DNA of 19,641 bases, taken from IMG/VR virus record IMGVR_UViG_2778261231_000016, positions 1 through 19,641 of that record; one strand, 5' to 3'. This document shows positions 1-18,579 of this stretch, one piece after another. This stretch comes from a virus. Taxonomy: Duplodnaviria > Heunggongvirae > Uroviricota > Caudoviricetes. A program made the position numbers and the translations under genes. The notes below the pieces were generated by a model, which saw only the letters and a list, made by a program, of their open reading frames with translations, ran no database searches and was not told where the DNA came from. Each line of letters opens with the position of its first letter. The first letter of the stretch is position 1.

Positions 1-3000
1 ATGAACAGGACCAGTCCCTATTATTGTCGCCGCTCAGTACTTTCCTTATTGATATCTGCCTTGATATATGCCCCGCCCGGGATGGCTGCCTTCACTACTA
101 ATGTTATTGGTGTGGTAAACGATGAGACTGTAGATGGCAACCAAAAAGTGGATGAACGAGGTACAACAAATAACACTCATATTATCAACCATGGCCAGCA
201 GAATGTTCATGGCGGGGTATCTAATGGAAGTCTTATTGAATCTGGTGGATATCAAGATATAGGAAGTCATAACAATTTTGTGGGGCAGGCTAATAATACA
301 ACCATTAACGGTGGCAGACAGTCAATTCATGACGGGGGTATTTCCACAGGTACGACAATCGAGAGTGGCAATCAGGACGTTTATAAAGGGGGTATCAGCA
401 ATGGAACGACAATTAAGGGCGGTGCTTCACGCGTAGAGGGAGGGAGTGCGAATGGAATACTCATTGATGGTGGTAGCCAGATAGTAAAAGTTCAAGGGCA
501 TGCTGATGGTACAACGATAAATAAGTCTGGCTCTCAGGACGTAGTACAAGGAAGTCTGGCAACGAACACAACCATAAATGGTGGTCGACAGTATGTTGAA
601 CAGAGCACAGTAGAAACAACAACCATTAAAAATGGCGGTGAGCAAAGAGTATATGAGAGCCGTGCGCTGGACACGACGATTGAAGGCGGAACTCAGTCTC
701 TGAATAGTAAGTCAACGGCAAAAAATACGCATATCTATTCTGGTGGCACGCAAATTGTTGATAACACCAGCACCTCGGATGTTATTGAAGTTTATTCTGG
801 TGGCGTGCTTGATGTTAGTGGTGGTACGGCAACAAATGTTACCCAGCACGATGGTGCAATTTTAAAAACTAACACTAACGGTACGACGGTGAGCGGTACG
901 AATAGTGAAGGTGCATTCTCCATCCACAATCACGTGGCAGACAATGTGTTGCTGGAAAACGGTGGTCATTTAGACATAAACGCATATGGTTCGGCAAACA
1001 AGACGATTATTAAAGATAAAGGAACAATGTCAGTTTTAACCAATGCTAAAGCTGATGCGACCCGAATAGATAATGGCGGGGTTATGGATGTTGCAGGAAA
1101 CGCGACAAATACCATAATTAATGGTGGCACACAGAATATTAATAATTATGGCATAGCCACAGGCACCAATATCAACAGCGGAACGCAAAATATCAAAAGC
1201 GGCGGGAAAGCTGACACAACAATTATATCCTCCGGGAGCCGGCAGGTTGTTGAGAAAGATGGTACGGCAATTGGCAGCAATATTAGCGCCGGAGGCTCGC
1301 TGATTGTCTATACCGGCGGTATTGCACATGGGGTTAACCAGGAGACGGGCAGTGCTTTAGTTGCCAACACGGGTGCAGGGACTGATATCGAAGGATACAA
1401 CAAGCTCTCTCACTTCACTATTACCGGAGGGGAGGCTAATTATGTTGTGCTGGAAAATACCGGCGAACTGACGGTAGTGGCTAAAACCTCGGCGAAAAAT
1501 ACTACCATTGATACTGGCGGTAAGCTGATTGTCCAGAAGGAGGCTAAAACAGATAGCACCAGACTTAATAATGGCGGCGTTCTGGAGGTTCAGGACGGTG
1601 GTGAGGCTAAGCATGTTGAGCAACAATCCGGCGGCGCATTAATTGCTTCCACGACCTCCGGAACACTTATCGAAGGAACCAACAGTTATGGTGATGCTTT
1701 CTACATCAGGAATTCAGAAGCTAAAAATGTAGTGCTGGAAAACGCTGGCTCATTAACAGTCGTCACTGGTTCCCGCGCAGTTGACACGATTATTAATGCC
1801 AACGGCAAAATGGATGTTTATGGAAAAGATGTTGGCACTGTACTCAATAGTGCTGGCACCCAAACAATATATGCCAGTGCCACTTCTGATAAAGCAAATA
1901 TCAAAGGTGGCAAGCAAACGGTATATGGTTTAGCCACTGAAGCAAATATCGAAAGTGGTGAACAAATTGTTGATGGTGGGTCAACAGAGAAAACACACAT
2001 CAATGGTGGCACGCAAACCGTTCAGAATTATGGTAAGGCAATCAATACCGATATCGTCTCTGGCCTACAACAAATTATGGCAAACGGGACAGCGGAAGGT
2101 TCCATTATTAATGGGGGTTCACAGGTAGTTAATGAGGGCGGTCTGGCTGAAAACTCGGTGCTTAATGACGGCGGCACACTCGATGTGCGGGAGAAAGGCA
2201 GCGCAACGGGGATACAGCAGAGTAGCCAGGGCGCTTTGGTTGCAACCACCAGGGCGACGCGGGTCACAGGAACACGCGCGGATGGCGTCGCGTTCAGCAT
2301 CGAGCAGGGTGCGGCGAACAATATCCTGCTGGCAAATGGCGGCGTGTTAACCGTGGAGTCAGACACCTCTTCTGACAAAACACAGGTCAATATGGGCGGA
2401 CGGGAGATCGTCAAAACAAAAGCCACTGCGACAGGCACGACGCTCACCGGCGGTGAACAAATTGTCGAGGGTGTGGCGAATGAGACAACAATTAACGACG
2501 GCGGAATACAAACAGTTTCAGCTAACGGAGAGGCAATAAAAACAAAGATCAATGAAGGCGGTACGCTGACAGTCAACGATAATGGCAAAGCGACAGATAT
2601 CGTCCAGAACAGCGGTGCCGCTCTCCAGACGAGCACGGCTAACGGTATTGAAATCAGCGGTACTCACCAGTACGGTACTTTTTCCATTTCCGGCAATTTA
2701 GCGACCAATATGTTGCTGGAAAATGGCGGTAATTTATTGGTATTAGCAGGTACCGAAGCTCGCGACTCCACGGTTGGCAAGGGGGGGGCAATGCAAAACC
2801 TGGGTCAGGACTCCGCCACAAAGGTTAACTCTGGCGGGCAATATACCCTTGGGCGGTCAAAAGATGAGTTTCAGGCTCTGGCCCGGGCAGAAGATCTCCA
2901 GGTCGCTGGCGGTACGGCAATCGTCTACGCAGGTACGCTGGCGGATGCATCGGTCAGTGGCGCGACAGGAAGCCTGTCGTTAATGACGCCACGGGATAAT

Positions 3001-4581
3001 GTTACGCCAGTTAAACTCGAAGGGGCGGTCCGGATTACCGATAGCGCGACATTGACTCTGGGAAATGGCGTCGATACCACGCTTGCCGACCTGACGGCTG
3101 CCAGCCGGGGCAGTGTCTGGCTTAACAGCAATAATTCCTGTGCAGGTACCAGCAACTGCGAATATAGAGTAAACAGTTTGCTACTCAACGACGGTGATGT
3201 TTATTTGTCAGCACAAACAGCAGCGCCTGCCACAACTAACGGTATCTACAATACGCTGACAACCAATGAACTTTCCGGTAGCGGTAATTTCTACCTGCAT
3301 ACCAACGTTGCAGGCTCCCGGGGCGATCAACTGGTCGTCAACAACAACGCCACTGGTAATTTTAAAATCTTTGTTCAGGATACCGGCGTCAGCCCACAGT
3401 CTGACGACGCGATGACGCTGGTGAAAACAGGGGGAGGGGATGCTTCGTTTACGCTGGGCAATACCGGCGGTTTCGTTGATCTTGGGACCTATGAGTATGT
3501 CCTGAAAAGTGACGGCAACAGCAACTGGAACCTGACCAATGATGTCAAACCCAACCCGGACCCCATCCCAAATCCAAAGCCAGACCCAAAACCCGATCCA
3601 AAGCCAGACCCAAATCCAAAACCAGACCCTACTCCCGATCCAACGCCGACACCCGTTCCGGAGAAACGCATTACGCCTTCTACGGCAGCCGTACTCAATA
3701 TGGCAGCAACATTACCGTTGGTATTTGATGCTGAGCTAAACAGTATTCGCGAGCGGTTGAACATAATGAAAGCGAGTCCACACAACAATAATGTCTGGGG
3801 GGCGACGTATAACACCCGTAATAATGTCACCACCGATGCGGGTGCCGGGTTTGAGCAGACGCTGACCGGAATGACAGTGGGGATCGACAGCCGTAATGAT
3901 ATTCCTGAAGGAATTACCACGCTAGGCGCTTTTATGGGCTATTCCCATTCACATATCGGTTTTGATCGCGGAGGACATGGCAGTGTGGGCAGTTATTCTC
4001 TGGGCGGCTATGCCAGTTGGGAACATGAAAGTGGTTTCTATCTGGACGGTGTCGTGAAGCTGAACCGTTTTAAAAGTAACGTAGCAGGTAAAATGAGCAG
4101 CGGTGGAGCCGCCAATGGCAGTTACCACAGCAACGGGCTGGGCGGTCACATTGAAACCGGGATGCGATTTACCGATGGTAACTGGAACCTGACGCCGTAT
4201 GCATCGTTAACGGGGTTCACCGCTGATAACCCCGAATATCATTTATCCAATGGCATGAAATCGAAATCAGTCGATACCCGCAGTATATATCGTGAACTGG
4301 GCGCAACGCTGAGTTACAACATGCGTCTGGGGAACGGTATGGAAGTTGAGCCGTGGCTGAAGGCGGCTGTGCGCAAAGAATTTGTCGATGATAACCGGGT
4401 GAAAGTGAATAGTGACGGTAATTTCGTCAATTATTTGTCGGGCAGACGTGGAATATACCAGGCAGGTATTAAAGCCTCATTCAGCAGTACGTTAAGCGGG
4501 CATCTTGGGGTGGGGTATAGCCATAGTGCCGGTGTGGAATCCCCGTGGAACGCGGTAGCTGGTGTGAACTGGTCGTTCTGA
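1..4581 (+). CDS. ypjA: AIDA-I/Ag43-type autotransporter adhesin (YpjA-like), 1526 aa
   Basis: Seen: ATG at 1; N-terminal signal-like segment MNRTSPYYCRRSVLSLLISALIYAPPGMAAF; long passenger of degenerate ~19-aa beta-helix repeats (GGxQxVxxGGxAxxTxIxxGG); Pro-rich PNPDPIPNPKPDPKPDP linker; C-terminal beta-barrel translocator ending in aromatic ...GVNWSF. Symbol from memory of the E. coli K-12 smpB-ssrA neighbourhood and the 1526-aa length; not verified by search. Confidence 0.85.
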   Translation: MNRTSPYYCRRSVLSLLISALIYAPPGMAAFTTNVIGVVNDETVDGNQKVDERGTTNNTHIINHGQQNVHGGVSNGSLIESGGYQDIGSHNNFVGQANNTTINGGRQSIHDGGISTGTTIESGNQDVYKGGISNGTTIKGGASRVEGGSANGILIDGGSQIVKVQGHADGTTINKSGSQDVVQGSLATNTTINGGRQYVEQSTVETTTIKNGGEQRVYESRALDTTIEGGTQSLNSKSTAKNTHIYSGGTQIVDNTSTSDVIEVYSGGVLDVSGGTATNVTQHDGAILKTNTNGTTVSGTNSEGAFSIHNHVADNVLLENGGHLDINAYGSANKTIIKDKGTMSVLTNAKADATRIDNGGVMDVAGNATNTIINGGTQNINNYGIATGTNINSGTQNIKSGGKADTTIISSGSRQVVEKDGTAIGSNISAGGSLIVYTGGIAHGVNQETGSALVANTGAGTDIEGYNKLSHFTITGGEANYVVLENTGELTVVAKTSAKNTTIDTGGKLIVQKEAKTDSTRLNNGGVLEVQDGGEAKHVEQQSGGALIASTTSGTLIEGTNSYGDAFYIRNSEAKNVVLENAGSLTVVTGSRAVDTIINANGKMDVYGKDVGTVLNSAGTQTIYASATSDKANIKGGKQTVYGLATEANIESGEQIVDGGSTEKTHINGGTQTVQNYGKAINTDIVSGLQQIMANGTAEGSIINGGSQVVNEGGLAENSVLNDGGTLDVREKGSATGIQQSSQGALVATTRATRVTGTRADGVAFSIEQGAANNILLANGGVLTVESDTSSDKTQVNMGGREIVKTKATATGTTLTGGEQIVEGVANETTINDGGIQTVSANGEAIKTKINEGGTLTVNDNGKATDIVQNSGAALQTSTANGIEISGTHQYGTFSISGNLATNMLLENGGNLLVLAGTEARDSTVGKGGAMQNLGQDSATKVNSGGQYTLGRSKDEFQALARAEDLQVAGGTAIVYAGTLADASVSGATGSLSLMTPRDNVTPVKLEGAVRITDSATLTLGNGVDTTLADLTAASRGSVWLNSNNSCAGTSNCEYRVNSLLLNDGDVYLSAQTAAPATTNGIYNTLTTNELSGSGNFYLHTNVAGSRGDQLVVNNNATGNFKIFVQDTGVSPQSDDAMTLVKTGGGDASFTLGNTGGFVDLGTYEYVLKSDGNSNWNLTNDVKPNPDPIPNPKPDPKPDPKPDPNPKPDPTPDPTPTPVPEKRITPSTAAVLNMAATLPLVFDAELNSIRERLNIMKASPHNNNVWGATYNTRNNVTTDAGAGFEQTLTGMTVGIDSRNDIPEGITTLGAFMGYSHSHIGFDRGGHGSVGSYSLGGYASWEHESGFYLDGVVKLNRFKSNVAGKMSSGGAANGSYHSNGLGGHIETGMRFTDGNWNLTPYASLTGFTADNPEYHLSNGMKSKSVDTRSIYRELGATLSYNMRLGNGMEVEPWLKAAVRKEFVDDNRVKVNSDGNFVNYLSGRRGIYQAGIKASFSSTLSGHLGVGYSHSAGVESPWNAVAGVNWSF
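3551..3660 (+). repeat. Imperfect 24-bp tandem repeats encoding the Pro-rich (P-x-P-K-P-D) linker of the autotransporter
   Basis: Seen: CCAAAGCCAGACCCAAA occurs at 3574-3590 and again at 3598-3614 (24-nt period) within a run of CCA/CCC/CCG-rich codons translating to PNPDPIPNPKPDPKPDPKPDPNPKPDPTPDPTPTP. Confidence 0.75.
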
Positions 4582-4592
4582 CCATCAACGAA

Positions 4593-4614
4593 AAAGCCCA
4601 CATCTGTGGGCTTT
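4593..4614 (+). terminator. Stem-loop downstream of the autotransporter stop (AAAGCCC-loop-GGGCTTT)
   Basis: Seen: inverted repeat AAAGCCCACA / TGTGGGCTTT starting 12 nt after the TGA at 4579-4581. The following T-tract is weak (TTTCATGTT), so intrinsic-terminator function is uncertain. Confidence 0.45.
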
Positions 4615-4741
4615 CATGTTACCAGGAGCCGCGGCTCCTTTGCGTATCCTTTTATGTCTCCTCACCGTCTGGTCGGTGTTTTGCTGAGACTTCTAACTTC
4701 CTGTTTTTGTTGGTGTTGTCCTTACACCGTCCAATCATGAT

Positions 4742-4785
4742 TGGTGGGCTGGCGGGAGTTGAACCCGCGTCCGAAATTCCTACAT
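4742..4785. repeat. att direct repeat: second copy of the ssrA 3' end (island boundary distal to ssrA)
   Basis: Seen: TGGTGGGCTGGCGGGAGTTGAACCCGCGTCCGAAATTCCTACAT at 4742-4785 matches 18582-18626 (the 3' end of ssrA, minus-strand gene) apart from a single missing A after TGGTGG. Identity stops after CCTACAT on both copies. Confidence 0.9.
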
Positions 4786-4980
4786 ACCATTTTTATTATA
4801 GTAAAAACAGTAGATTATGTTTGAAAACAATGTGTTAGTGTTATTTTGTATTTGCTCGTCTTACGCGTTTTTAATGCTCTGCCGCCAAAGTGCCGCCATT
4901 ACATCAAGCATCTAGAATAAAATTAGTTAATAAATTATAATTAATATGCTAATTGTTCTTGCATTCATAAGTGGGACGTG

Positions 4981-6714
4981 ATGAAAGAAAAAAAATTCGT
5001 TAGTGAGCTTTTCCTTGAAAATGGGCAGTTTATTTTAGTCGGTTTGACAGGTCGAACTGGTTCTGGTTGCACAACAACAGCTAATATTCTTGAAAACGAA
5101 AAAACAGTCTTCCCTGATGTAAGTAAATTACAGGGGTTTTACAAGGGATTGGATGTCCATCGTTATAATATAGTTAAAAAATTCGCAGAAAATCACTGGG
5201 AAAATTTTTACTCAATTAAGGTGAGTGACCTAATCTCAGCGTATCTTCTGATGTTAACAGTTGAGGAAGCTTCTGAATTCATTCTATCATCTAATAAATT
5301 TATCAGTAAAGGGCATTTAGATATTGTATTAACTTTTGGTGTATTCTCAGATAATCTCATTTTGACAAGATTTAAAAATGTAATTGAGAATTTGCTTGAT
5401 CATAATAGTGAATTGAAGCTTGATGAAAAAACGATTAATAAATTTATATCAATTTTGAAGTTAGTTAGAAAATTTACTAAAGAATTCAAAGCTGAACTAA
5501 ATGAGATAAACTCAAATTTATATGTTTCAGCCTATCAGTTAGCAGGTAAGTCAATTAGACGTCGTGGGCGTATTGAAGTCGATTTTGAAGATAAAGAGTT
5601 TATGCCTAAATCTGTTTTTCATTTGCCGGAAACTATTAATAGGGTTATTAAATTAATAAGAAAAAGCAAAAGAGATAACGCATTAATTGTCATAGATGCT
5701 ATTAGAAATCCATATGAGGCAAAATTTTTTAAGGATAGATATTCTGCATTTCATTTAATGTCAATAAATGCCCCAGATGAACATCGAACAAACTATTTGC
5801 GGAAACTACATAAGTTTTCAGAAAAGCAGATAGAGGAAATAGATTCTGTAGAGTCAGGTAAAGGTGATAACTCTTACAAACATCTCACCAATCCAAATGT
5901 AACTAAATGTATTGAACTATCAGATATACACATTTTTAACCCAAAAAATGAATTTGATAATGATAATATTTTAAAAGCACAATTAGCGTGGTACATCGCA
6001 CTGATGAAGCATCCTGGTCTGATAACACCTACTGCAATGGAAAGGGTTATGCAAGTTGCGTATACGGTAAAATTAAACTCTGGCTGTATATCTAGACAGG
6101 TGGGAGCTGTAGTAACTGATGGTGATAATTCAATAAAATCAGTTGGTTGGAATGATGTTGCCAACGGTCAGATTCCTTGCTCTATGAGATCTCTAGATGG
6201 CCTAATGAACGATTTTGATGAAAAAACGTACAGTCATTATGAGAGAAATAATAGTTCTTTCAGAATTAAAGCTAATGAGAAACTCTTAAATTTTAGGGCG
6301 ATAGATAAAACTGGTGATATTTATAGAGGCAGGAACTTATCTTATTGTTTTAAAGATATACATAATGATCTTGATAAAGAGAAAAAAGGTAATCAAGTTC
6401 ATACACGTGCATTACATGCTGAGGAAAACGCATTTTTACAACTTGCAAAATATGGTGGTATTGGCGTTCTTGGGGGGAAGTTGTATACAACTGCCAGTCC
6501 CTGTGAGTTGTGTGCGAAAAAAGCTTATCAGTTAGGTATATCTGAAATTGTATTTATTGATCCCTACCCAGGTATAGCTCAAGACCATATTATTAATATA
6601 GGTAGTAAGCCACCAAAGTTAATACAATTTAGAGGCGCAATTGGGAAGTCATATCACCGACTTTATGAGCAAATTATCCCGATAAAAGATGAGTTAGAAT
6701 ATCTCCTTGAGTAG
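4981..6714 (+). CDS. P-loop nucleotide-kinase-like domain fused to cytidine/dCMP-deaminase domain; AvcD/DcdV-like antiphage nucleotide-depletion enzyme (577 aa from ATG 4981; GTG at 4978 is an alternative start)
   Basis: Seen: P-loop G-L-T-G-R-T-G-S-G-C-T-T at 5041-5076 with Cys where the Walker-A Lys is expected; deaminase zinc motifs H-A-E at 6415-6423 and P-C-E-L-C at 6499-6513; very AT-rich compared with flanking phage genes. Established: this two-domain architecture is characteristic of AvcD/DcdV and the dCTP-deaminase defence proteins. Family assignment is from motif recognition only. Confidence 0.7.
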   Translation: MKEKKFVSELFLENGQFILVGLTGRTGSGCTTTANILENEKTVFPDVSKLQGFYKGLDVHRYNIVKKFAENHWENFYSIKVSDLISAYLLMLTVEEASEFILSSNKFISKGHLDIVLTFGVFSDNLILTRFKNVIENLLDHNSELKLDEKTINKFISILKLVRKFTKEFKAELNEINSNLYVSAYQLAGKSIRRRGRIEVDFEDKEFMPKSVFHLPETINRVIKLIRKSKRDNALIVIDAIRNPYEAKFFKDRYSAFHLMSINAPDEHRTNYLRKLHKFSEKQIEEIDSVESGKGDNSYKHLTNPNVTKCIELSDIHIFNPKNEFDNDNILKAQLAWYIALMKHPGLITPTAMERVMQVAYTVKLNSGCISRQVGAVVTDGDNSIKSVGWNDVANGQIPCSMRSLDGLMNDFDEKTYSHYERNNSSFRIKANEKLLNFRAIDKTGDIYRGRNLSYCFKDIHNDLDKEKKGNQVHTRALHAEENAFLQLAKYGGIGVLGGKLYTTASPCELCAKKAYQLGISEIVFIDPYPGIAQDHIINIGSKPPKLIQFRGAIGKSYHRLYEQIIPIKDELEYLLE

Positions 6715-6745
6715 AAATATTATACTCATCCTTCCTGAGGTAAGC

Positions 6746-6779
6746 TTCAAGATGATCAATAAATATTGATCATCTTGAA
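6746..6779. repeat. Perfect 15-bp inverted repeat with 4-nt loop (TTCAAGATGATCAAT aaat ATTGATCATCTTGAA)
   Basis: Seen directly, 32 nt downstream of the deaminase-fusion stop. Contains two GATC sites. No T-tract follows on either strand, so it is not a canonical intrinsic terminator. Confidence 0.8.
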
Positions 6780-7095
6780 AGTTAATTGCAGAGTCAAACT
6801 AGTAGTCAGACTGAAGCTTCGATAAAAAATGTTTTTGTTTTTTTTCATTTTCTAATGACTGTTTTTTATTGGTTTCTTTTTAATGTTGCAATGCTATGCT
6901 TTTCTACTATTTTTGAATGTGGCATCTTTGATGTTTTTATACAACAAAGATGAGGGCCTATAGGTTTTTTTGTGATGTAAAAATTATCTTATTCTATAAA
7001 TAAAACCTAAACTCAGTCTGAAGAGTTAAATGAGAATGGATAACCTGCTGAATATTATATTTGTAAATAGTTTGAGTTTGTTTTCATAAGTTACT

Positions 7096-8112
7096 CTATC
7101 TTAAGTTGCATAAAGGGTTTTTAGTTACCGCATCTTCAAGGTGATCGGGCGAAAAGTGGGCGTAAATCATCGTCATTTTTATATCGGCATGGCCCAGAAT
7201 ATCGCGCAGCACCAGTATGTTTCCGCCATTCATCATAAAATGGCTGGCGAATGTATGACGTAGCACGTGAGTGCATTGGCCCTCTGGCAGCTCGATGCCA
7301 GCTCGCTTTACTGCTCGTTCAAAGGCTTTTCTGCACGGGGTGAATAGCTTCCCTCTGTTCTTGGGGAGTTCGTCATACAGATCTTGAGATATCGGCACGG
7401 TGCGGTTTTTCTTACCCTTCGTCTTGGTATAAGTGATGCGGTATTTAGATAACTGATGGCCCTGCAGGTTTTCAGCTTCACTCCAGCGTGCGCCGGTGGC
7501 CAGGCATATTTTTGCAATCAAAAGCAGACTGGGGTTTTGAGAATCAGCGCAGGCATCTAGCAGACGTTTAATTTCTTCCGAGGTCAGGAACGCCAGTTCC
7601 CCCTCAGCGATTTTAAATGTTGGCAGCCCGGCGAGAGGATTTGGTGCTGACCAGTGGCCTAGTTTTTTCAATGTGCCGAAAACCGATGATAGGTTACGTT
7701 GCTCAAGATTCACCGTGCGTGGTTTTACTGGCGACATTAGTGTGCCGTCTTCGTTACGAACGTCACCTTTTAACCGTGCTTCGCGGTATTTCGTAAAGTC
7801 ACCGGCTGTCAGTTCTGAGGCGATGGGGTCGCCTAGACCATTACAGATAATTCTAAGTTTCGCCATGAGGCGCTTGGGGTCTGCGAGTGTCTGACCATAC
7901 AGGGAATACCAAAGCTCAATTAATTCTGATAGGCGTCGCCGATCATCCTTTTCACCCAACCACGGTTTTTTATTCACTTCTTCCATTGTGAAGCTTTCAA
8001 AAGCAATGGCTTCGCCTTTCGTAGCAAATTGCTTACGCACGCGCTTACCATTGCGTCCATTGGGATAGCACTCACACAACCATTTTCCGTTCGGCTGTTT
8101 TCTGATGGTCAT
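7096..8112 (-). CDS. int: P2/186-type tyrosine integrase (338 aa)
   Basis: Seen: N-terminus MTIRKQPNGKWLCECYPNGRNGKRVRKQF resembles the P2 Int N-terminus; C-terminal catalytic region has ...ATGARWSEA..., HVLRHTFASHF and ...IYAHF (tyrosine recombinase R/H-x-x-R/Y signature). Start abuts the cI stop. Confidence 0.95.
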   Translation of the reverse strand: MTIRKQPNGKWLCECYPNGRNGKRVRKQFATKGEAIAFESFTMEEVNKKPWLGEKDDRRRLSELIELWYSLYGQTLADPKRLMAKLRIICNGLGDPIASELTAGDFTKYREARLKGDVRNEDGTLMSPVKPRTVNLEQRNLSSVFGTLKKLGHWSAPNPLAGLPTFKIAEGELAFLTSEEIKRLLDACADSQNPSLLLIAKICLATGARWSEAENLQGHQLSKYRITYTKTKGKKNRTVPISQDLYDELPKNRGKLFTPCRKAFERAVKRAGIELPEGQCTHVLRHTFASHFMMNGGNILVLRDILGHADIKMTMIYAHFSPDHLEDAVTKNPLCNLR

Positions 8113-9140: not shown

Positions 9141-9485
9141 ATGTTTGATTATAAGATTTCCAAACACCCGCATTTTGATGAAGCCTGTAGAGCTTTTGCA
9201 CTTCGTCACAATATGGCGAAGCTGGCAGAACGTTCAGGAATGAATGTCCAGACTCTGCGAAACAAACTCAACCCAGATCAACCGCATCAGCTCAATGCGC
9301 CAGATATCTGGCTACTTACCGATCTGACGGAAGATTCAACGCTGGTAGACGGTTTTCTGGCACAGATTCACTGCCTGCCATGTGTACCGATTAATGAGGT
9401 GGCAAAAGAGAAACTGCCACATTACGTCATGAGTGCAACCGCAGAGATCGGGCGTGTTGCTGCAGGTGCGGTACCGGTTTTCTAA
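9141..9485 (+). CDS. cII: Phage CII-family regulatory protein, apparently C-terminally truncated (114 aa)
   Basis: Seen: RBS AAGGGGG before ATG; N-terminal region MFDYKISKHPHFDEACRAFALRHNMAKLAERSGMNVQTLRNKLNP matches my recollection of 186-type CII proteins. Those are ~165-170 aa by memory, and here the ORF stops right at the junction with the tail-fibre stub. Confidence 0.65.
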   Translation: MFDYKISKHPHFDEACRAFALRHNMAKLAERSGMNVQTLRNKLNPDQPHQLNAPDIWLLTDLTEDSTLVDGFLAQIHCLPCVPINEVAKEKLPHYVMSATAEIGRVAAGAVPVF

Positions 9486-9871
9486 AATATAACGGAGCGT
9501 CATTCAACAAGGCAATGTATCCCAAACTTGCACAAATTTTCCCGTCAGGAGTATTACTTGATTTGCGCGGCGTATTTATTCGAGGCTGGGATGATGGAAA
9601 AGGGATTGATGCCGGGCGTGCAATACTGACACAGCAGCAGGATGCCCAGCAAAATATCACCGGCATGGTTTCTGATATGACAGTCGGCGTAAATGCTGAC
9701 GGAACAGGTGCATTTAGTATGGTCGATTTAACTACATCAGGCATTTCGGCAGGTGCACTAAATTCTTTTTATCAAAAGCATATTTATCTGGATTCCTCCA
9801 GAGTGGTCAGAACGGCAACTGAAAACCGTCCGGTAAATATCGCATTCAACTACATTGTGAGGGCTGCATAA
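9486..9871 (+). pseudogene. Tail-fibre (H-like) C-terminal remnant, 5'-truncated
   Basis: Seen: frame is open from just after the cII stop; translation contains the tail-fibre collar-like motif ...NGASFNKAMYPKLAQIF...LRGVFIRGWDDGKGIDAGRA...; no N-terminal fibre domain or proper start; stop overlaps the G start (TAATG at 9869-9873). Confidence 0.65.
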
Positions 9872-10458
9872 TGATGAACGCAGATTTAGCCATTTTAGAG
9901 AACGGTATTGCGACAACCGCCGGATGGATAACGATATATAACTATTCGGCGGTTACAGGTGAATATCTTGACAGCAACAGTGAATACATTCCAGAAGGTG
10001 TTGGATTGCCTGCGCTGGCAACAGATATTGAACCGCCGAACAGACCGGACGGTCAGGCTGTTATCTGGCAGGGTTCGTGGATACTGATGGATGACTGGCG
10101 GGGTGAAACGGTTTATTCCATTTTTGATGGTTCTGCCAGTATCGTGGATTACCTCGGGGCAATCGCAGAGGGATATACACAACAGAAACCCGCAACCCGT
10201 TTTGATAAATGGGATGGTAAGCAGTGGGTGACTGATACTGACGCGCGAAATACGGAAGCTGTTGCAGTTTCTACGCAACAGAAAGCTGCATTGCTGGCTG
10301 AAGCCACCGCGACCATAGCACCGCTTCAGGATGCAAAAGACGGAGGTTATATTGATGATGCTGATATTCCGATGTTGATTTCTTGGCAAAAATATCGCTA
10401 CGCGCTGACTAAAGTTAATCCTAAAACTCCTGTTTGGCCCAGCAAACCAAGTGTATAA
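9871..10458 (+). CDS. Tail-fibre assembly protein (P2 G-like, 195 aa)
   Basis: Seen: start overlaps the upstream fibre stop as in P2 H/G; 195-aa product in the expected position before the G-FI accessory slot. Similarity to gpG-type chaperones judged by eye. Confidence 0.8.
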   Translation: MMNADLAILENGIATTAGWITIYNYSAVTGEYLDSNSEYIPEGVGLPALATDIEPPNRPDGQAVIWQGSWILMDDWRGETVYSIFDGSASIVDYLGAIAEGYTQQKPATRFDKWDGKQWVTDTDARNTEAVAVSTQQKAALLAEATATIAPLQDAKDGGYIDDADIPMLISWQKYRYALTKVNPKTPVWPSKPSV

Positions 10459-10470
10459 ATGGTAATATAA

Positions 10471-10505
10471 AAGGCAGTTCACTCTATGATGAACTGCCTT
10501 TTATA
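10471..10505. terminator. Bidirectional stem-loop between convergent G and the 110-aa cargo ORF
   Basis: Seen: AAGGCAGTTCA (10471-10481), 8-nt loop, TGAACTGCCTT (10490-10500), followed by TTTAT on the plus strand and TTATATT on the minus strand. Confidence 0.6.
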
Positions 10506-10524
10506 ACGAGCATCAAAATATAGA

Positions 10525-10857
10525 TTATTTACCAAACAAAGAAACTATGTTGACTGCGACTGTGGTGATATCAGTCGCAGGTTTTAGCCATTTACTGATT
10601 TCATACTTGTCAAGGATTGAAGGGTACTCACTTGCTTCAACTGTTTTCAATTGATGTGCCGCTTGATTAATGTTTTCAAGTGGCGCGCCGGGAATGAAAT
10701 TTTCTTCTAGAAAGCTTTTTTGGCTTTCATATATTGATATCGCCTCGCCATTTCCAGAAAAAGTAGTTTCTTTAAAAACTAACTCTGTACACTCTGGTGC
10801 TCGAACTCCAATCGTATTATTAATAAAAGTACAACCCTCGAAAGTATGCTTACCCAT
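10525..10857 (-). CDS. Hypothetical protein (110 aa), AT-rich cargo in the G-FI (P2 Z/fun-equivalent) slot
   Basis: Seen: ATG at 10855-10857, stop followed by the stem-loop above; opposite orientation to all flanking late genes; markedly lower GC than neighbours; no recognisable motif, no signal peptide or obvious TM segment. Confidence 0.6.
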   Translation of the reverse strand: MGKHTFEGCTFINNTIGVRAPECTELVFKETTFSGNGEAISIYESQKSFLEENFIPGAPLENINQAAHQLKTVEASEYPSILDKYEISKWLKPATDITTVAVNIVSLFGK

Positions 10858-11032
10858 TTTTAGATTTTACCTTGGTTGCGTAGTGAAACCATTAGTTTAC
10901 ATCTTTCACCAGTAGCAATAAAAATGATGGTTAAGAATTGAGACGAGTATCACTGAACTATACATGCTGACCAAAGGAACCTTTCAAAGAATTTAAATGC
11001 GCTGCTAACGATCATTTTTCGTCAATATCAAT

Positions 11033-11050
11033 TGTGCTATTTCCCACACA
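11033..11050 (+). promoter_or_regulatory. Candidate Ogr-dependent late-promoter element (TGT-N12-ACA) upstream of the FI operon
   Basis: Seen: TGTGCTATTTCCCACACA at 11033-11050, ~75 nt upstream of the FI ATG. Established: P2 late promoters carry a TGT-N12-ACA dyad centred near -55 recognised by Ogr. Single motif match, so moderate confidence. Confidence 0.45.
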
Positions 11051-11124
11051 TAGCCCACTACGTGCGCCGCGTGCATATCAACCAGAACATAGGCACACCC
11101 CCTGTAAACCGGAGAGACTGCCTT

Positions 11125-12297
11125 ATGGCTCAGGATTACCACCACGGGGTGCGCGTTGTTGAAATCAACGAGGGCACCCGATCCATTACCACGGTGAGCA
11201 CCGCCATCGTGGGCATGGTCTGCACCGGCGATGATGCTGATGCGTCCATGTTTCCCCTCAATAAGCCGGTCCTGCTGACCGATGTGCTGACTGCCAGCGG
11301 TAAAGCGGGCGAGTCCGGCACGCTGGCCCGTTCGCTGGATGCGATTGCAGACCAGGCTAAACCCGTGACCGTCGTTGTGCGCGTGGCACAGGGCGAAACC
11401 GAAGCGGAAACAACCTCCAACATTATCGGCGGCGTAACTGCTGACGGTAAAAAAACGGGTATGAAAGCGCTGCTTTCGGCGCAGTCGCAGTTGGGCGTCA
11501 AGCCGCGCATTCTCGGCGTGCCGGGGCATGACACGCAAGCGGTTGCCACTGAGCTGCTGAGCGTGGCGCAGAGCCTGCGCGGGTTTGCCTACCTGTCCGC
11601 TTATGGCTGCAAAACGGTAGAAGAAGCGATTGCCTACCGTGACAATTTCAGCCAGCGCGAGGGGATGCTGATCTGGCCTGACTTCATCAACTTTGACACC
11701 GTGCTGAATGCCGACGCGACGGCTTACGCCTCCGCCCGTGCGCTCGGCCTGCGCGCCAAAATTGACGAGCAGACCGGCTGGCACAAAACCCTGTCCAACG
11801 TGGGCGTGAACGGCGTTACCGGCATTTCCGCTGATGTGTTCTGGGATCTGCAGGACCCGGCAACCGATGCGGGACTACTGAACCAGAACGACGTCACCAC
11901 GCTTATCCGCAAAGATGGCTTCCGCTTCTGGGGTTCCCGCTGCCTCAGTGACGATCCTCTGTTTGCCTTTGAGAACTACACCCGCACGGCGCAGGTGCTG
12001 GCTGACACCATCGCAGAAGCGCACATGTGGGCGGTGGATGGCGTACTCAACCCGTCGCTGGCCCGTGACATTATCGAAGGTATTCGGGCCAAGCTGTGCA
12101 GCCTGAAAACACAGGGCTACATCATCGGCGCAGACTGCTGGCTGGATGAGTCGGTGAACGATAAAGACTCCCTGAAAGCCGGGAAACTCACTATCGACTA
12201 CGACTACACGCCGGTGCCGCCGCTTGAAAACCTGATGCTGCGCCAGCGCATCACCGATCAGTACCTGCTGGATTTCTCCAGCCAGGTCAGCGCGTAA
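11125..12297 (+). CDS. Contractile tail sheath protein (P2 FI homologue, 390 aa)
   Basis: Seen: RBS GGAGAG 8 nt upstream; N-terminus [35 protein letters not shown] closely matches P2 FI (MSDYHHGVQVLEINEGTR...). The ORF-track start at 11032 is an upstream in-frame extension I do not believe. Confidence 0.95.
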
Positions 12298-12306
12298 GGG
12301 GACACC

Positions 12307-12822
12307 ATGGCTTTACCACGCAAGTTAAAACACCTGAACCTGTTCAACGACGGGAACAACTGGCAGGGGATCGTTGAGTCTCTGACCCTGCCGAAATTCA
12401 CCCGCAAGTTTGAGAAGTATCGCGGCGGCGGTATGCCGGGCGCGGTGGACGTGGACATGGGGCTGGATGACGGCGCACTGGACACGGAATTTTCAATCGG
12501 CGGCACCGAACTGCTGTTATTTAAGCAGATGGGCAAGGCCACGGTTGACGGAATCCAGCTGCGTTTCACCGGCTCCATTCAGCGTGACGATACCGGCGAA
12601 GTGCAGGCCGTTGAGCTGGTTGTGCGCGGGCGTCATAAAGAAGTGGATTCCGGCGAGTGGAAAACCGGCGAGAGCAGCACCACCAAAGTCAGCAGCACCA
12701 ACAGCTACGCGAAGCTGACCATTAACGGCGAAGTGCTCTATGAGGTCGATCTGGTCAACATGGTTGAAATCGTTGACGGCGTGGACCTGATGGAAGAACA
12801 CCGTAACGCCCTCGGCCTCTGA
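12307..12822 (+). CDS. Tail tube protein (P2 FII homologue, 171 aa)
   Basis: Seen: immediately follows FI with RBS AAGGGG; size and position as P2 FII. Confidence 0.93.
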   Translation: MALPRKLKHLNLFNDGNNWQGIVESLTLPKFTRKFEKYRGGGMPGAVDVDMGLDDGALDTEFSIGGTELLLFKQMGKATVDGIQLRFTGSIQRDDTGEVQAVELVVRGRHKEVDSGEWKTGESSTTKVSSTNSYAKLTINGEVLYEVDLVNMVEIVDGVDLMEEHRNALGL

Positions 12823-12876
12823 TTAACCTTAACGGCGCGGGAAGCCGCGCCAGTATTTCATTAACAGGAAACGAAC

Positions 12877-13179
12877 ATGAGCGACAAGCTGACTGAAAAG
12901 ACCGTAAAACTGGATACCCCCATCATGCGCGGTAAAACTGAAATTACCGAAATTGTGCTGCGCAAGCCGCAGTCCGGCGCACTGCGTGGCACCCGTCTGC
13001 AGGCCATTATGGATATGGACGTGGGCGCGATGATGACTGTGATCCCGCGAATCTCCACTCCGACGCTGACCGCGCAGGAAATGGCAGAGCTGGACCCCGC
13101 CGATCTGACAGCAATGGCTGTAGAGGTGGTGACTTTTTTGTTGCCGAAGTCGGTGCTTGCCGATTTGCCGACAACCTGA
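12877..13179 (+). CDS. Tail assembly chaperone (P2 E homologue, zero-frame product, 100 aa)
   Basis: Seen: RBS AGGAAA; position between the tube and tape-measure genes; contains the slippery heptamer TTTTTTG (13135-13141) near its 3' end. Confidence 0.85.
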   Translation: MSDKLTEKTVKLDTPIMRGKTEITEIVLRKPQSGALRGTRLQAIMDMDVGAMMTVIPRISTPTLTAQEMAELDPADLTAMAVEVVTFLLPKSVLADLPTT

Positions 13180-13313
13180 CGGTTGATGATCTGGTGGCAG
13201 ATATTGCCACCATCTTTCACTGGTCGCCGTCCATCACTGACGTTATGCCGCTGACTGAGGTGCTGGAATGGCGGCATAAGGCAATTCAGCGAAGCGGGGC
13301 CAGCGATGAGTGA
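12877..13313 (+). CDS. E+E' fusion made by programmed -1 frameshift at TTTTTTG (about 13135-13141); E' frame ends at TGA 13311-13313
   Basis: Seen: the -1 frame after the slippery site is open to 13313 and overlaps the tape-measure start (13306). Established: the P2 FETUD operon makes E+E' by -1 frameshifting at this kind of site. The exact shift codon is not determinable by eye. Confidence 0.65.
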
Positions 13314-16083
13314 TAATAACCTGCGTCTGCAGGTGGTTTTGGGGGCGGTTGACAAGTTAACCCGCCCTTTTAAAAATGCCCAGGCTGGCTCAAAAGAGCT
13401 GGCAGCGGCAATCCGGCAGACCCGCGACCAGCTTAAGCAACTGAGCGATGCGGGAGGCCAGTTAAAATCCTTCGACCAGCTATCGCAAAGCGTGCGCCGT
13501 ACAGGTGCAGAGCTGGATCAGACGAGACTGCGCGCGCAGATGATGACGCGCGAAATGTCATCTTTGGAATCCCCAACAAAAAAACAAACTCAGGCGCTTG
13601 AAGCTCAGTGGCGTGCTGTTGCACGTCTTGAGCAAAAGCAGAAACAGGAAACAAACCAGCTATCTGCAGTAAGGGGGGAGCTTTACAGGCTGGGGTTATC
13701 TGCTGGGGGCGGAGCGCGGGAAACCGCCAGAATTACCCGTGAAACTGAGAAGTATAACCAGAAGCTGGCAGAGCAGGAGCGCAGGCTGCGCGAGGTTGGC
13801 GAGCGTCAGCGAAAGCTCAACGCTATCAAAGCCAAGGCTGAAAAGACCCGTGAGTTAAGGAACTCTCTGGCAGGTAATGGTGCAGGGGAGATGGCGGCTG
13901 GGGTAGCTACTGGCATGACGTTATTGGCTCCAGTAAAAGCCTATTCTGAATCTGAAAATGCCGCTAATCAGCTCGCCGGTTCAATGATGGGGCCGGGCGG
14001 AAAGGTCGCACCTGAATTTGAGAAAATTAACCAGCTGGCGGTAGCGCTTGGAGACAGGCTGCCGGGAACCACTGCAGATTTCCAGAACATGATGACAATG
14101 CTGCGTCGTCAGGGGATGTCAGCACAGGTCATTCTTGGCGGGCTGGGGGAATCGGCGGCTTATCTGGGGGTGCAGTTGCAGATGGCTCCCACTGCTGCGG
14201 CTGAGTTTGCCGCAAAATTGCAGGATGCAACACAGACCTCAGAAAAAGACATGATGAGCCTGATGGATCTGATCCAGAAGGGTTTTTATGCCGGTGTTGA
14301 CTCAGGGAATATGCTGCAGGGATTTTCTAATATCAGCAGCGCCATGAGCATTATTAATCAAAAAGGGATTGAAGCAGCTAAAACTTTTGCTCCGTTGCTG
14401 GTGATGGCTGATCAGAGCGGGATGGCTGGTGAGTCTGCAGGTAATGCTTACCGAAAAATTTTCCAGGCAGCGCTGGATTCAAAAAATATTCAGTCAGTCA
14501 ACGACGATCTGAAAGGCACCGGTATCAACTTCAATTTTTCCAATGGTAAAGGTGGATTCGGCGGGCTGGAAAATATGTACGCCCAGCTGGAAAAGCTTAG
14601 TAAGCTCAACGATGAAACCCGGATGGCAACGATTAAGGATCTGTTCGGTAATGATGCGGAAGTCATGAAAGTCCTTAACACCATGATTGAAAAAGGTATT
14701 AATGGATATCGTGAAACTACCGCCAAACTTGAAAATCAGGCTTCACTGCGGGAACGCGTCGATGCGTCCCTGAATACCCTGGGTAATAAATGGGAAGCCG
14801 CTACAGGTTCCTTTACCAATGCTATGGCTAGTATCGGTGAAACAGTTGCCCCAACATTAAAGAAGCTGGCTGACTGGTTGGGTGAACTGGCTTCGCGTCT
14901 GGATGGTTTTGTTAAACGACACCCACAATTGACCTCAGCGCTGTTTAAGCTGGCAGCTGGCTTTGCCATTGTTGCCACCGCCGCTGGGGTTGTTTCACTG
15001 GCGCTGGCGTCCGTGTTAGGGCCGATGGCAGTAGTGCGAATGAGCGCAGGGGTGATGGAGCTAAAATTTTCATCTGCATTTGGTCTTATTGGGAAAGCAA
15101 TCAGTTCTGTTGGCAAGTCAGTTATATGGCTGGGCCGATTGATGTTTGCAAATCCTATACTGGCTGTCATTGGGCTGATCGCCGCTGGTGCTATTTATAT
15201 CTGGCAGAACTGGGACACGCTTGGACCAAAATTCAAGGCAATGTGGGATGCCGTATGTAATGCCACAAGTACGGCATGGGATTGGATTAAAGAGAAGGCC
15301 AGCGCCGCATGGGAGGGGATTAAGTCACTGTTCTTTAATTATACCTTGCCGGGATTAATAGCTAAAAATTGGGATGCAATAAAAACTGGCGTTTCTGAAG
15401 CGTGGGCCAATATCAGACAATCTATTAGTGATAAATGGAATTCGATCCTGGCTGATGTTGCCGCGCTTCCTGCGAAGTTTCAGGACATGGGCAGCGCCAT
15501 TATTGACAGCATTCTCGATGGAATTAATGCCAAATGGGAGACACTCAAAAGCAAGCTTTCCTCAGTCACAGATTATCTGCCTGACTGGATGACCGGAAAT
15601 AATAAAACACAAGACAAAGCACAGGTGCAGGTGGTTGGTGGAGCAGCGGCTGCTGCCGTTCCGTTTGCCGGGATGTATGACAGTGGTGGGATTATTCCGC
15701 GCGGTCAGTTCGGTATTGTTGGAGAGAACGGCCCTGAAATTGTGAACGGCCCCGCAAATGTGACCAGCAGGCGGCGCACTGCCGCGCTGGCTTCCGTCGT
15801 TGCAGGTGTCATGGGCGTAGCGGCAGCGCCTGCAGAGGCTGCTCCACTACATCCTTACAGTCTGCCTACTGTGGCATATAAACAAAGCCAGCCTGCGAAA
15901 TCTGCCAGCGCGCCGCCAGTGATGCACTTTGAAACTCACGCGCCGATCACTATCTATGCTCAGCCAGGGCAGAGTGCACATGATATTGCCCGTGAAGTTG
16001 CCCGACAGCTTGACGAACGCGAGCGCAAGACCAGGGCTAAAGCACGCAGTAATTTCAGTGATCAAGGGGGATATGAATCATGA
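13306..16083 (+). CDS. Tail tape measure protein (P2 T homologue, 925 aa)
   Basis: Seen: long coiled-coil-rich N-terminal half (Q/E/R/K/A-rich), hydrophobic central segments; located between E/E' and U; stop overlaps the U start. Confidence 0.95.
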   Translation: MSDNNLRLQVVLGAVDKLTRPFKNAQAGSKELAAAIRQTRDQLKQLSDAGGQLKSFDQLSQSVRRTGAELDQTRLRAQMMTREMSSLESPTKKQTQALEAQWRAVARLEQKQKQETNQLSAVRGELYRLGLSAGGGARETARITRETEKYNQKLAEQERRLREVGERQRKLNAIKAKAEKTRELRNSLAGNGAGEMAAGVATGMTLLAPVKAYSESENAANQLAGSMMGPGGKVAPEFEKINQLAVALGDRLPGTTADFQNMMTMLRRQGMSAQVILGGLGESAAYLGVQLQMAPTAAAEFAAKLQDATQTSEKDMMSLMDLIQKGFYAGVDSGNMLQGFSNISSAMSIINQKGIEAAKTFAPLLVMADQSGMAGESAGNAYRKIFQAALDSKNIQSVNDDLKGTGINFNFSNGKGGFGGLENMYAQLEKLSKLNDETRMATIKDLFGNDAEVMKVLNTMIEKGINGYRETTAKLENQASLRERVDASLNTLGNKWEAATGSFTNAMASIGETVAPTLKKLADWLGELASRLDGFVKRHPQLTSALFKLAAGFAIVATAAGVVSLALASVLGPMAVVRMSAGVMELKFSSAFGLIGKAISSVGKSVIWLGRLMFANPILAVIGLIAAGAIYIWQNWDTLGPKFKAMWDAVCNATSTAWDWIKEKASAAWEGIKSLFFNYTLPGLIAKNWDAIKTGVSEAWANIRQSISDKWNSILADVAALPAKFQDMGSAIIDSILDGINAKWETLKSKLSSVTDYLPDWMTGNNKTQDKAQVQVVGGAAAAAVPFAGMYDSGGIIPRGQFGIVGENGPEIVNGPANVTSRRRTAALASVVAGVMGVAAAPAEAAPLHPYSLPTVAYKQSQPAKSASAPPVMHFETHAPITIYAQPGQSAHDIAREVARQLDERERKTRAKARSNFSDQGGYES

Positions 16084-17954: not shown

Positions 17955-17978
17955 AACCTGCTGCGGCAGGTTTTTTAT
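17955..17978. terminator. Bidirectional intrinsic terminator between convergent ogr and the BRCT-domain gene
   Basis: Seen: AACCTGC-tgcg-GCAGGTT followed by TTTTTT (17971-17976) on the plus strand; on the minus strand the hairpin is followed by TTCTTGTTTTAAAAAT. Confidence 0.65.
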
Positions 17979-18457
17979 GCGTCAGGAATTTCACCCGTTT
18001 CTATAAAATGAACAAAACTTTCTTCATCAATGATGATCGTACCCTTCATGCGTGCAGCATTTACTTTGGAAGGGCCAGCATTGTATCCGCAACAGAGCAT
18101 CTGCAGATTTTGAGTAACGGAACTTCTCACTGTCATGCTGTGCGCTTCGGCAACTTCAATCAAACGCTCTTTATCTGCCTTTTTGAAACCTGTAAAACAG
18201 ACGTCAAAAGTGAGGGTTTTGGGCTTGGTGGCCTTGGTTAGATGGATGTAATTTTCCGGTAGGAAGGACTGACAGGCTTGCTGTGCTTCATCAGCAGATG
18301 TGCATTCTTGAAGTATTCTATCTTTACGAAACGTTCTTATTGAATGGGTTGATTGGCATATACCCTGAATGTGGTTATCGCTGTAGCTAACACTGCTTAT
18401 TGAATGGGCACCAATGCGCGCATTCGCATTGATGTAAACAAAGTGCATTTCTTCCAT
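17975..18457 (-). CDS. BRCT-domain protein of unknown function (160 aa from ATG 18455-18457)
   Basis: Seen: C-terminal ~80 aa (TLTFDVCFTGFKKADKERLIEVAEAHSMTVRSSVTQNLQMLCCGYNAGPSKVNAARMKGTIIIDEESFVHFIETG) fits the BRCT pattern of NAD-ligase-type BRCT domains; strong RBS AAGGTGA 6 nt before the internal ATG. The ORF-track start at 18544 would overlap the ssrA terminator and is rejected. Confidence 0.65.
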   Translation of the reverse strand: MEEMHFVYINANARIGAHSISSVSYSDNHIQGICQSTHSIRTFRKDRILQECTSADEAQQACQSFLPENYIHLTKATKPKTLTFDVCFTGFKKADKERLIEVAEAHSMTVRSSVTQNLQMLCCGYNAGPSKVNAARMKGTIIIDEESFVHFIETGEIPDA

Positions 18458-18545
18458 GTGAATCACCTTTATTACACAAACGGTTAAGACGTTATGAACG
18501 GTGGGCAAATTGGCTGCCGCCATTTTGCCGCCACAGCCAAACAAA

Positions 18546-18579
18546 AAGGGGTTACGTTTTCACGTAACCCCTTGTTTTA
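18546..18579 (-). terminator. ssrA intrinsic terminator (stem GGGGTTACG / CGTAACCCC)
   Basis: Seen: hairpin immediately 3' of the tmRNA CCA end on the minus strand, followed by TTTTTGT (minus strand). Confidence 0.75.

Follow-up and report, generated by a model that had tools for sequence, protein, structure and literature searches.

Stable stem-loops that lie downstream of the coding sequence, and that no U-rich tract follows, protect Rho-dependent transcripts at their 3' ends, and C-rich, G-poor RNA resembling Rho utilization (rut) sites has been reported immediately downstream of them (PMC6061677). A separate body of work concerns quasipalindromes, imperfect inverted repeats that are known to be corrected by template switching in Escherichia coli (the Ripley model, pursued with the reporters of the Lovett laboratory; PMC7202029), and a survey has proposed that the same bias keeps perfect inverted repeats conserved in Proteobacteria (PMC5941160). 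Both bear on the element considered here, a perfect palindrome at positions 6746–6779 (+ strand) of a 19,641-nt stretch of viral DNA (the window; IMG/VR record IMGVR_UViG_2778261231_000016). The window holds a prophage of the Fels-2/186 kind, and the palindrome lies shortly past the stop codon of its gene for an anti-phage dCTP deaminase.

The account I prefer, to which I would give a probability of about 0.55, is that the palindrome is a fossil of the 3' end of an integrase gene (int) and today acts as a protective 3' stem-loop, with no U-tract, on the deaminase mRNA. Its derivation from int, which the original prediction (made from the letters of the window) missed, is well supported by sequence comparison. 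The palindrome belongs to kinds of element already known, 3' stem-loops and corrected quasipalindromes, and is unusual only in that its birth can be traced: a non-coding hairpin arising from a coding inverted repeat, with the intermediates preserved in different prophages.

Like the stem-loops of PMC6061677, it is a stable hairpin shortly past a stop codon in E. coli with no uridines after it, and by analogy its role would be to block PNPase and RNase II and so fix the 3' end of the mRNA. It differs from them in that its stem is unusually long, perfect and AT-rich, in that no rut region follows on the + strand, and in that it is known here from sequence alone. With corrected quasipalindromes it shares the passage from an imperfect repeat to a perfect one, by a central deletion and substitutions compatible with one or a few template-switch events; unlike them, it has a starting point identifiable as coding sequence (the residues IKMT and DHLE of int) and a product that lies in a 3' untranslated region (UTR). 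Intrinsic and bidirectional terminators, represented in the window at 18546–18573 and apparently at 10466–10505, resemble it in being hairpins between convergent genes, but the palindrome has no T-run, no A-run on the opposite side and no G+C-rich stem base, and the terminator scan that misses it does find the true terminator at 18546–18573.

As for the gene itself, it resembles phage morons and the defence cargo of P2-family hotspots (Rousset et al. 2022, PMC9122126) as a low-GC, self-contained defence gene at a fixed junction with flanking signals of its own. It departs from them in that the junction occupied here, between an attP arm and the int stop codon, was not found by a term search of PMC9122126, and in that the 3' signal of the cassette appears to have been recycled from the neighbouring int rather than imported with the gene.

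The Palindrome

The palindrome reads TTCAAGATGATCAAT-AAAT-ATTGATCATCTTGAA. Viewed as duplex DNA it has 16-bp arms around a 2-nt centre (AA), and imperfect complementarity extends beyond it to 21 nt per arm at 90% (6741–6761 and 6764–6784). It starts 32 nt past the TAG stop codon of the deaminase gene (6712–6714), across a spacer of 31 nt (6715–6745, + strand), and is situated in the deaminase 3' UTR. It contains GATC sites at 6754–6757 and 6768–6771, 14 nt apart, and its stem is followed by no T-run on either strand (the + tail is AGTTAATTGC and the - tail GCTTACCTCA). In all these respects (the perfect 34-nt hairpin, its distance from the stop, the two GATC sites and the missing T-tract) the sequence confirms the original prediction.

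The palindrome is real and non-random. When the window was shuffled block-wise 200 times, the longest perfect inverted repeat (with loops up to 12 nt) reached 12 bp once and otherwise no more than 11, as compared with the 16 observed. For a 46-nt RNA containing the palindrome, the folding energy is -20.6 kcal/mol (+ strand) or -19.8 kcal/mol (- strand), with z of about -8.3, and none of 200 shuffled sequences was as stable. The stem is very stable and AT-rich, with 4 G-C pairs among 15–16, and it is the only strong structure within 6715–7095.

No family of Rfam 15 reached its gathering score on the palindrome, tmRNA being the only one found in the window, and a permissive search of 4560–7200 gave on the hairpin just one spurious sub-threshold match, to a miRNA precursor (23.4 vs 54.5 bits). 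Other candidate features were considered and set aside: a 30-aa open reading frame (ORF) on the - strand (6756–6848) that ends inside the palindrome and whose start is lost in a 97% variant; a sigma-70-like match on the - strand (6797–6769) that is no better than chance; and a site for IHF (WATCAANNNNTTR), which on a reading of the sequence fits poorly and has the wrong spacing.

Origin in an Integrase Gene

In 16 sampled phage or prophage loci, a deaminase 70–77% identical in amino acid sequence directly abuts a convergent int gene, the two stop codons lying 6–20 nt apart. The int is intact in L024, L041–L046, L049–L053 and L055 and is a 108-aa C-terminal fragment in L014–L017. On the + strand, 40–50 nt past the deaminase stop, the 3' ends of these genes read CTTCAAGATG(A/G)TC TGGTGA...CCATG GTCATCTTGAT, that is, CTTCAAGATG(A/G)TC..GGTCATCTTGAT, and they contain the inverted repeat CTTCAAGATGATC-24 nt-GGTCATCTTGAT, in which T.G is mismatched and the outer bases do not pair. 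The - strand encodes D-I-K-M-T-M-(V/I)-Y-(S/A)-H-F-S-P-D-H-L-E-D, the motif around the catalytic tyrosine. The codons for IKMT (ATC-AAG-ATG-ACC) and for DHLE (GAT-CAT-CTT-GAA), which flank that tyrosine, are near reverse complements of one another, and this sub-lineage of int therefore bears a natural, imperfect inverted repeat.

Positions 6745–6779 of the window align by MAFFT with these int 3' ends across a single gap of 14 nt (11 nt in the sister type of hairpin, described below). The local alignment of 6715–6795 with the int 3' ends scores 37.5, as against a mean of 16.6 and a maximum of 31.5 for shuffled sequences; shuffles reached the score in 0 of 2000 trials vs L042 and L049 and in 1 of 2000 vs L024. 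The - strand of the palindrome still reads FKMINIY* and IDHLE, to be compared with DIKMTMIY..PDHLE in int. By this alignment the left arm (6746–6757, together with C6745) would correspond to the codons for D-H-L-E on the - strand and the right arm (6768–6779) to those for (I)-K-M-T, and the inner 6758–6767 would be the residue left when 14 nt were deleted from the M-I-Y-A-H-F-S-P codons.

The resident int of the prophage, a Fels-2-type tyrosine integrase gene (7096–8112, - strand; 338 aa; PF24624 and PF00589) that is 84–88% identical in DNA to the int genes of Fels-2, RE2010 and Cartapus, has itself no such inverted repeat, because its IKMT codons are ATA AAA ATG ACG. Its DHLE codons (7134–7146, CTTCAAGGTGATC) match 6745–6757 of the palindrome at 12 of 13 positions, a direct repeat that is explained if the palindrome is, as it appears to be, a shrunken relic of the 3' end of a Fels-2-type int.

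In a first sample, five int genes adjacent to a deaminase had the inverted repeat and eight others did not, a correlation that would make the repeat specific to deaminase adjacency and hence selected as a 3' hairpin for the deaminase. This idea was rejected. In a pattern scan of viral contigs, the same int variant turned up beside unrelated cargo (L212/L225, L218 and L227), and the repeat is therefore a feature of the int sub-lineage.

The sequences on either side of the palindrome have decayed further. The - strand of the spacer (..IDHLEAYLRKDEY.., compared with ..PDHLEDAVSKNPLNFI* in int) probably preserves, in scrambled form and with weak resemblance, the final codons that followed DHLE in the old int; it is identical to the sister lineage at 17–18 of 33 nt (~52%). 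To the right, 6909–7085 (- strand) matches the first ~60 codons of a 208-aa gene (orf208) for an apparently membrane-spanning protein, interrupted by two in-frame stops (tblastn, 41.7% identity over 60 aa; 42–44% identity with E values of 3e-8 to 4e-9 in a local search space). An intact orf208, called as 208 or 212 aa on the - strand, lies between hairpin and int, just downstream of int, in the sister loci L010 (2108–2734), L011, L013 (4874–5500), L229 and L230, and tblastn finds an identical copy in L009. Searches of Pfam, NCBIfam and PADLOC gave no family match for orf208. From the intact gene in sister loci and the pseudogene in the window, the layout of the common ancestor would therefore have been deaminase, int relic, orf208, int. 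The AT-rich interval 6780–7095, which had been read as mere spacer insulated by the palindrome, holds this decayed gene, and most of it is, judging by the homology, dead orf208.

Distribution and Conservation of the Hairpin

Among 5,426 complete E. coli genomes, 20 carry the palindrome with its flanks, in one place each and always after a deaminase gene. No genome of the 5,426 has a second copy, double listings arising only from the palindromy itself. Over a 651-nt test region, seven of the genomes are at least 99% identical to the window and 13 are ~94.5% identical, and the latter group differs within the palindrome only at the outermost pair, with TTGAT in place of TTGAA. A scan of viral sequences for the exact palindrome found five stretches. 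Scans of viral and metagenomic sequences with a pattern of the arms gave many matches, and those adjoining a deaminase gene were the same two E. coli variants only. In the metagenomes, where matches were mostly by chance, the relevant ones were only the E. coli-type copies L116 and L172. The remaining matches to the pattern, whose arms were not inspected, look like chance as well.

Conservation downstream of homologous deaminase genes had been proposed as a check on the palindrome, and it was borne out: every locus with a deaminase of 89% identity or more has, at the same position, a hairpin with the same arms. The sister loci, at 89% deaminase identity (L009–L013, L229 and L230), come from Citrobacter, Siccibacter, Enterobacter and assemblies of sequencing runs. 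Their core arms are CAAGATGACC and GGTCATCTTG, extended by CGGG/CTTG, with a 7-nt loop that exists in three versions. Across these loci 13–14 stem pairs are invariant.

The stem has changed less than its surroundings. Between the window and L009, divergence at four-fold sites is 0.42, and 18 of 20 core stem nucleotides are identical (binomial P = 0.002); the orf208 relic is 67–70% identical and the spacer, as noted, about half. Between L009 and L013, with four-fold site divergence of 0.185, the stem is identical at 26 of 26 positions (binomial P = 0.005) and the loop differs at 4 of 7 (stem vs loop, Fisher P = 0.0009). The energy of the + strand RNA is -20.6, -20.7 and -21.3 kcal/mol across three architectures, and that of the - strand in the sister type is weaker (-14.3 and -16.0 kcal/mol) because of G.U pairs. 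The constancy of the + strand energy points to RNA in the deaminase sense as the relevant molecule.

Perfection of the Arms

In the ancestral state, the left arm is ..GATGATC and the right arm GGTCATCTTGAT, so that T faces G at one position and the outer T is left unpaired. Two substitutions in the right arm mark the window type, GGTC to GATC and TTGAT to TTGAA, and both create a further Watson-Crick pair. The 94.5% type (L002) has the first of these only and keeps the ancestral TTGAT, and so represents an intermediate. The sister type has instead a change in the left arm, GATC to GACC. The ancestral T.G position has thus become T-A in the one type and C-G in the other, and all three arm substitutions (G to A, T to A and T to C) raise complementarity. 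These changes fit selection for a stronger stem and, equally, template-switch correction of a quasipalindrome.

The history that these comparisons support begins with an ancestral phage in which the deaminase cargo lay tail-to-tail with int, at the stop-to-stop distance of 6–20 nt seen in the abutting loci, the int being of the sub-lineage whose IKMT and DHLE codons form an imperfect inverted repeat, its arms standing 24 nt apart. Rearrangement would afterwards have brought in orf208 and a new int on the right, and of the old int only the final 25 or so codons would have stayed beside the deaminase gene. In the lineage of the window, this relic would then have lost 14 nt from its centre and gained the two right-arm substitutions, and so become a perfect palindrome with 16-bp arms. 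Transcribed as part of the deaminase 3' UTR, it would form a hairpin of about -21 kcal/mol without a U-tract, able to block 3'-to-5' exonucleases and so to define and stabilise the end of the mRNA after factor-dependent or diffuse termination. It may likewise cap the convergent cI-int transcript.

Function or Fossil

The proposal that the palindrome caps the deaminase mRNA follows from the presence, in E. coli, of a stable stem-loop without a U-run 32 nt past the stop codon. A protective RNA hairpin is my best guess, over no function at all, and this is a step that I infer. Of the suggestion in the original prediction that the palindrome is an RNA-stabilising or Rho-associated 3' stem-loop, the general idea survives as the best functional guess, and the association with Rho finds no rut-like region on the + strand to rest on. 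Several results weigh against a protective role. C-rich, G-poor RNA is absent immediately downstream on the + strand, where C amounts to 10–12% and G to 13–20% (7.5–14% and 12.5–20%, respectively, over 6780–7100); the - strand has more C than G only past the int stop, 20% vs 7.5% at 7095–7016. A strong 3' hairpin follows homologous deaminase genes in some other contexts (L018, L027 and L008) and is missing in others (L030, L025 and L047). Formal covariation in alignment A3 is not significant, since there are only two or three independent relic lineages: both partners have changed in one pair, and 53 of 500 shuffles score as high. Once arm-to-arm correction is allowed for, the excess conservation of the stem becomes only marginally unexpected (P estimated at ~0.02–0.09), and perfect inverted repeats have been reported as conserved across Proteobacteria by just this bias (PMC5941160).

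The main rival view is that the palindrome is a functionless fossil, a decaying int remnant made perfect and kept so by template switching rather than by selection, which is a real contender even if I consider it the less probable account. That every arm substitution raises complementarity is the signature of template switching at quasipalindromes in E. coli (PMC7202029), the central deletion and the perfection of the arms could have come about in a single such event, and the hairpin has neither a U-tract nor a rut-like region downstream. A fossil would not be expected, however, to keep the ancestral int sequence at 9 of 10 core arm positions in both lineages while loop, spacer and the orf208 pseudogene diverged by 30–50%, nor to hold ~-21 kcal/mol on the + strand across architectures, with G.U pairs that work in the + RNA only. 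Furthermore, were correction the only force, some arm pairs should have given way to new ones, and only one has. At the other extreme, it is unlikely that the last codons of int have been exapted, under selection, as a functional 3' boundary or insulator hairpin of a mobile deaminase cassette that needs it for expression in the lysogen against convergent cI-int transcription; such a hairpin might also be a favoured breakpoint for the shuffling of cargo at the attP-int hotspot.

Other roles have far less to recommend them. A strict intrinsic terminator, possibly bidirectional, separating the deaminase gene from the cI-int operon would be in its usual place between convergent units (deaminase on the + strand; cI-int, and orf208 in the sister loci, on the - strand), and no other strong structure lies within 6715–7095. 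It is nonetheless very improbable, given that a T-run after the stem is absent from both strands in the window and in every variant, that a scan of 6300–7400 found 0 sites, and that the AT-rich stem has its 4 G-C pairs where the window's real terminators (18546–18573 and 10466–10505) have G+C-rich stems and T-runs. I give slightly less credence still to a site acting as duplex DNA, whether an operator for a dimeric regulator or a pair of GATC sites sensitive to Dam or SeqA, even though the dyad symmetry is perfect, there are two GATC sites and the prophage family encodes a Dam methylase of its own. The spacing between the conserved 10-nt arms varies, from 10 nt in the window type through 13 nt in the sister type to 24 nt in the ancestors with intact int, which makes the dimeric protein-binding site once suggested unlikely; no regulator gene travels with the cassette either. 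A dependence on Dam, also put forward earlier, is unlikely for another reason: the sister type has GACC/GGTC in place of the two GATC sites, the ancestors with intact int lack one of them, and the GATC is derived from GAT-CAT (Asp-His) codons. Least probable of all is a signal for mobility or recombination, such as a repetitive extragenic palindrome (REP) or miniature inverted-repeat transposable element (MITE), an attC-like site or a breakpoint hairpin for the swapping of cargo. The recognisable int relic does end exactly at the end of the right arm, with different sequence to the right in the different lineages, and the attP-int junction is a hotspot for cargo where int genes are mosaic. Against this, the element stands in a single place per genome and nowhere else in the E. 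coli set of 5,426, neutral decay of orf208 could account for the divergence to the right, and by my own reading of the sequence an integron attC site is a poor fit, the stem being perfect, without extrahelical bases or RYYYAAC/GTTRRRY cores.

If the hairpin does protect the deaminase mRNA, then flanking phage genes can be put to use by defence cassettes as 3' signals; if it has no function, it is a natural example of quasipalindrome correction. Either outcome leaves knowledge of deaminase defence itself unchanged.

The Deaminase Gene and Its Relatives

The gene for the anti-phage dCTP deaminase occupies 4981–6714 (+ strand) and encodes 577 aa from the ATG at 4981. Its product matches NCBIfam NF041025 (antiphage_deaminase) at 425.6 bits, with a cutoff of 400, the PADLOC dCTPase model at 1.3e-145 and Pfam PF00383, and it bears the RefSeq label 'anti-phage dCTP deaminase'. 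A scan of genome contigs yielded a single locus with the deaminase, in Photobacterium, and that locus carries an unrelated hairpin resembling a terminator.

Deaminases of the AvcD type are described as paired with an antitoxin RNA, AvcI (PMC10511110). That paper discusses the terminator to be expected between the genes for antitoxin and toxin, which suggests to me that AvcI lies upstream of the deaminase gene, and I consider it unlikely to be relevant to the downstream palindrome. The ~70 nt upstream of the gene in the window (4907–4980, between the attP arm and the deaminase start) are very AT-rich and specific to the cargo, with a TATAAT at ~4937. No RNA family was detected at 4907–4980, and no AvcI-like antitoxin RNA was identified in the window.

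In two assemblies from Yersinia enterocolitica (L027/L028), where the deaminase is 71% identical, a U-less hairpin is followed by at least 8 tandem copies of the 9-nt sequence TAAAACATC, ~60–140 nt after the deaminase stop. The number of copies differs between the two assemblies.

The Prophage and the attP-int Junction

The deaminase gene is cargo of a Fels-2/186-like prophage at ssrA, where it is inserted between attP arm and int and is convergent to int. The left part of the window is E. coli chromosome, with the autotransporter gene ypjA at 1–4581. The prophage end at 4741–4906 (- strand) consists of a partial ssrA 3' end, with the att core at ~4741–4790, and an attP arm of the Fels-2 type; the segment matches Fels-2, SEN8, RE2010, Cartapus and others at their attP, and a fragment of tmRNA is detected at 4742–4831 (- strand, 25.3 bits). 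The complete ssrA at 18582–18944 (- strand) marks the other end of the prophage. The variable cargo region begins just to the right of the attP arm, within a low-GC island (~4900–7095; GC content ~0.29–0.36) that holds the deaminase gene. After the island come int and the cI, apl/cox-like and cII genes of a 186/Fels-2-like prophage of the P2 family.

The attP-int junction is without cargo in Fels-2, where the attP arm lies 3 nt from the int stop and the DNA matches to arm and int are ~31 nt apart, and in SEN8, which has the same 31-nt gap between matches. Comparison among loci L206–L209 found other cargo at the junction: a 401-aa protein with no assigned function in RE2010, a RES-domain protein in Cartapus and a 516-aa hypothetical protein in Klebsiella phage ST437-OXA245phi4.1. 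In these three the cargo is co-oriented with int, whereas the deaminase gene is convergent to it. Empty in two phages and differently occupied in three, the site between attP arm and int stop is therefore a hotspot for cargo, documented here at ssrA, and deaminase cassettes travel there in company with pieces of int.

The int genes are mosaic: that of the window is 98–99% identical to that of L049 over the first ~300 nt and ~80% identical thereafter. Moreover, the 3' ends of int genes next to deaminase genes have a lower GC content than others (34–39% vs 46–49%). These features suggest recombination inside int as the means by which cargo is exchanged. In the metagenomic and NCBI contigs L014–L017, a 75%-identical deaminase gene lies in a different island, adjacent to smpB/ssrA and with a P4-type integrase. 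The 108-aa C-terminal fragment of a Fels-2-type int is retained beside it (4768–5091), and the cassette therefore moved with a piece of int.

Other Features of the Window

The window has one other palindrome with 16-bp arms, at 10466–10505 (ATATAAAAGGCAGTTCA-CTCTATGA-TGAACTGCCTTTTATAA, with a loop of 8). An A-run and a T-run border its G+C core, and the ORFs on either side of it end at 10458 (+ strand) and 10525 (- strand). By its look it would be a conventional bidirectional terminator; the terminator scan did not list it. At 18546–18573 (- strand), a 12-bp G+C-rich hairpin followed by TTTTTGTTT stands directly after the CCA end of ssrA (18582). The scan does list this one, a canonical intrinsic terminator. 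Because it is situated on the prophage side of the att core, the tmRNA owes its terminator to the phage.

Across the att site, ogr and ssrA flank an ORF of 189 aa (17975–18544, - strand; 160 aa in RefSeq relatives), which may be a second cargo gene. It gives weak matches to the C-terminal region of the NAD-dependent DNA ligase LigA (NCBIfam) and to the PADLOC candidate PDC-S48 (6e-7).

The prophage looks rearranged over 9141–16083 relative to near-identical relatives, the contents of L001 and L002 differing there from those of the window. A block of high GC content (0.55–0.62) spans ~11000–14000, and a gene resembling that of a tail tape-measure protein (13306–16083) comes after the early region. 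The ORF of the cII family has 114 aa in the window and 169 aa in the near-identical relative L001.

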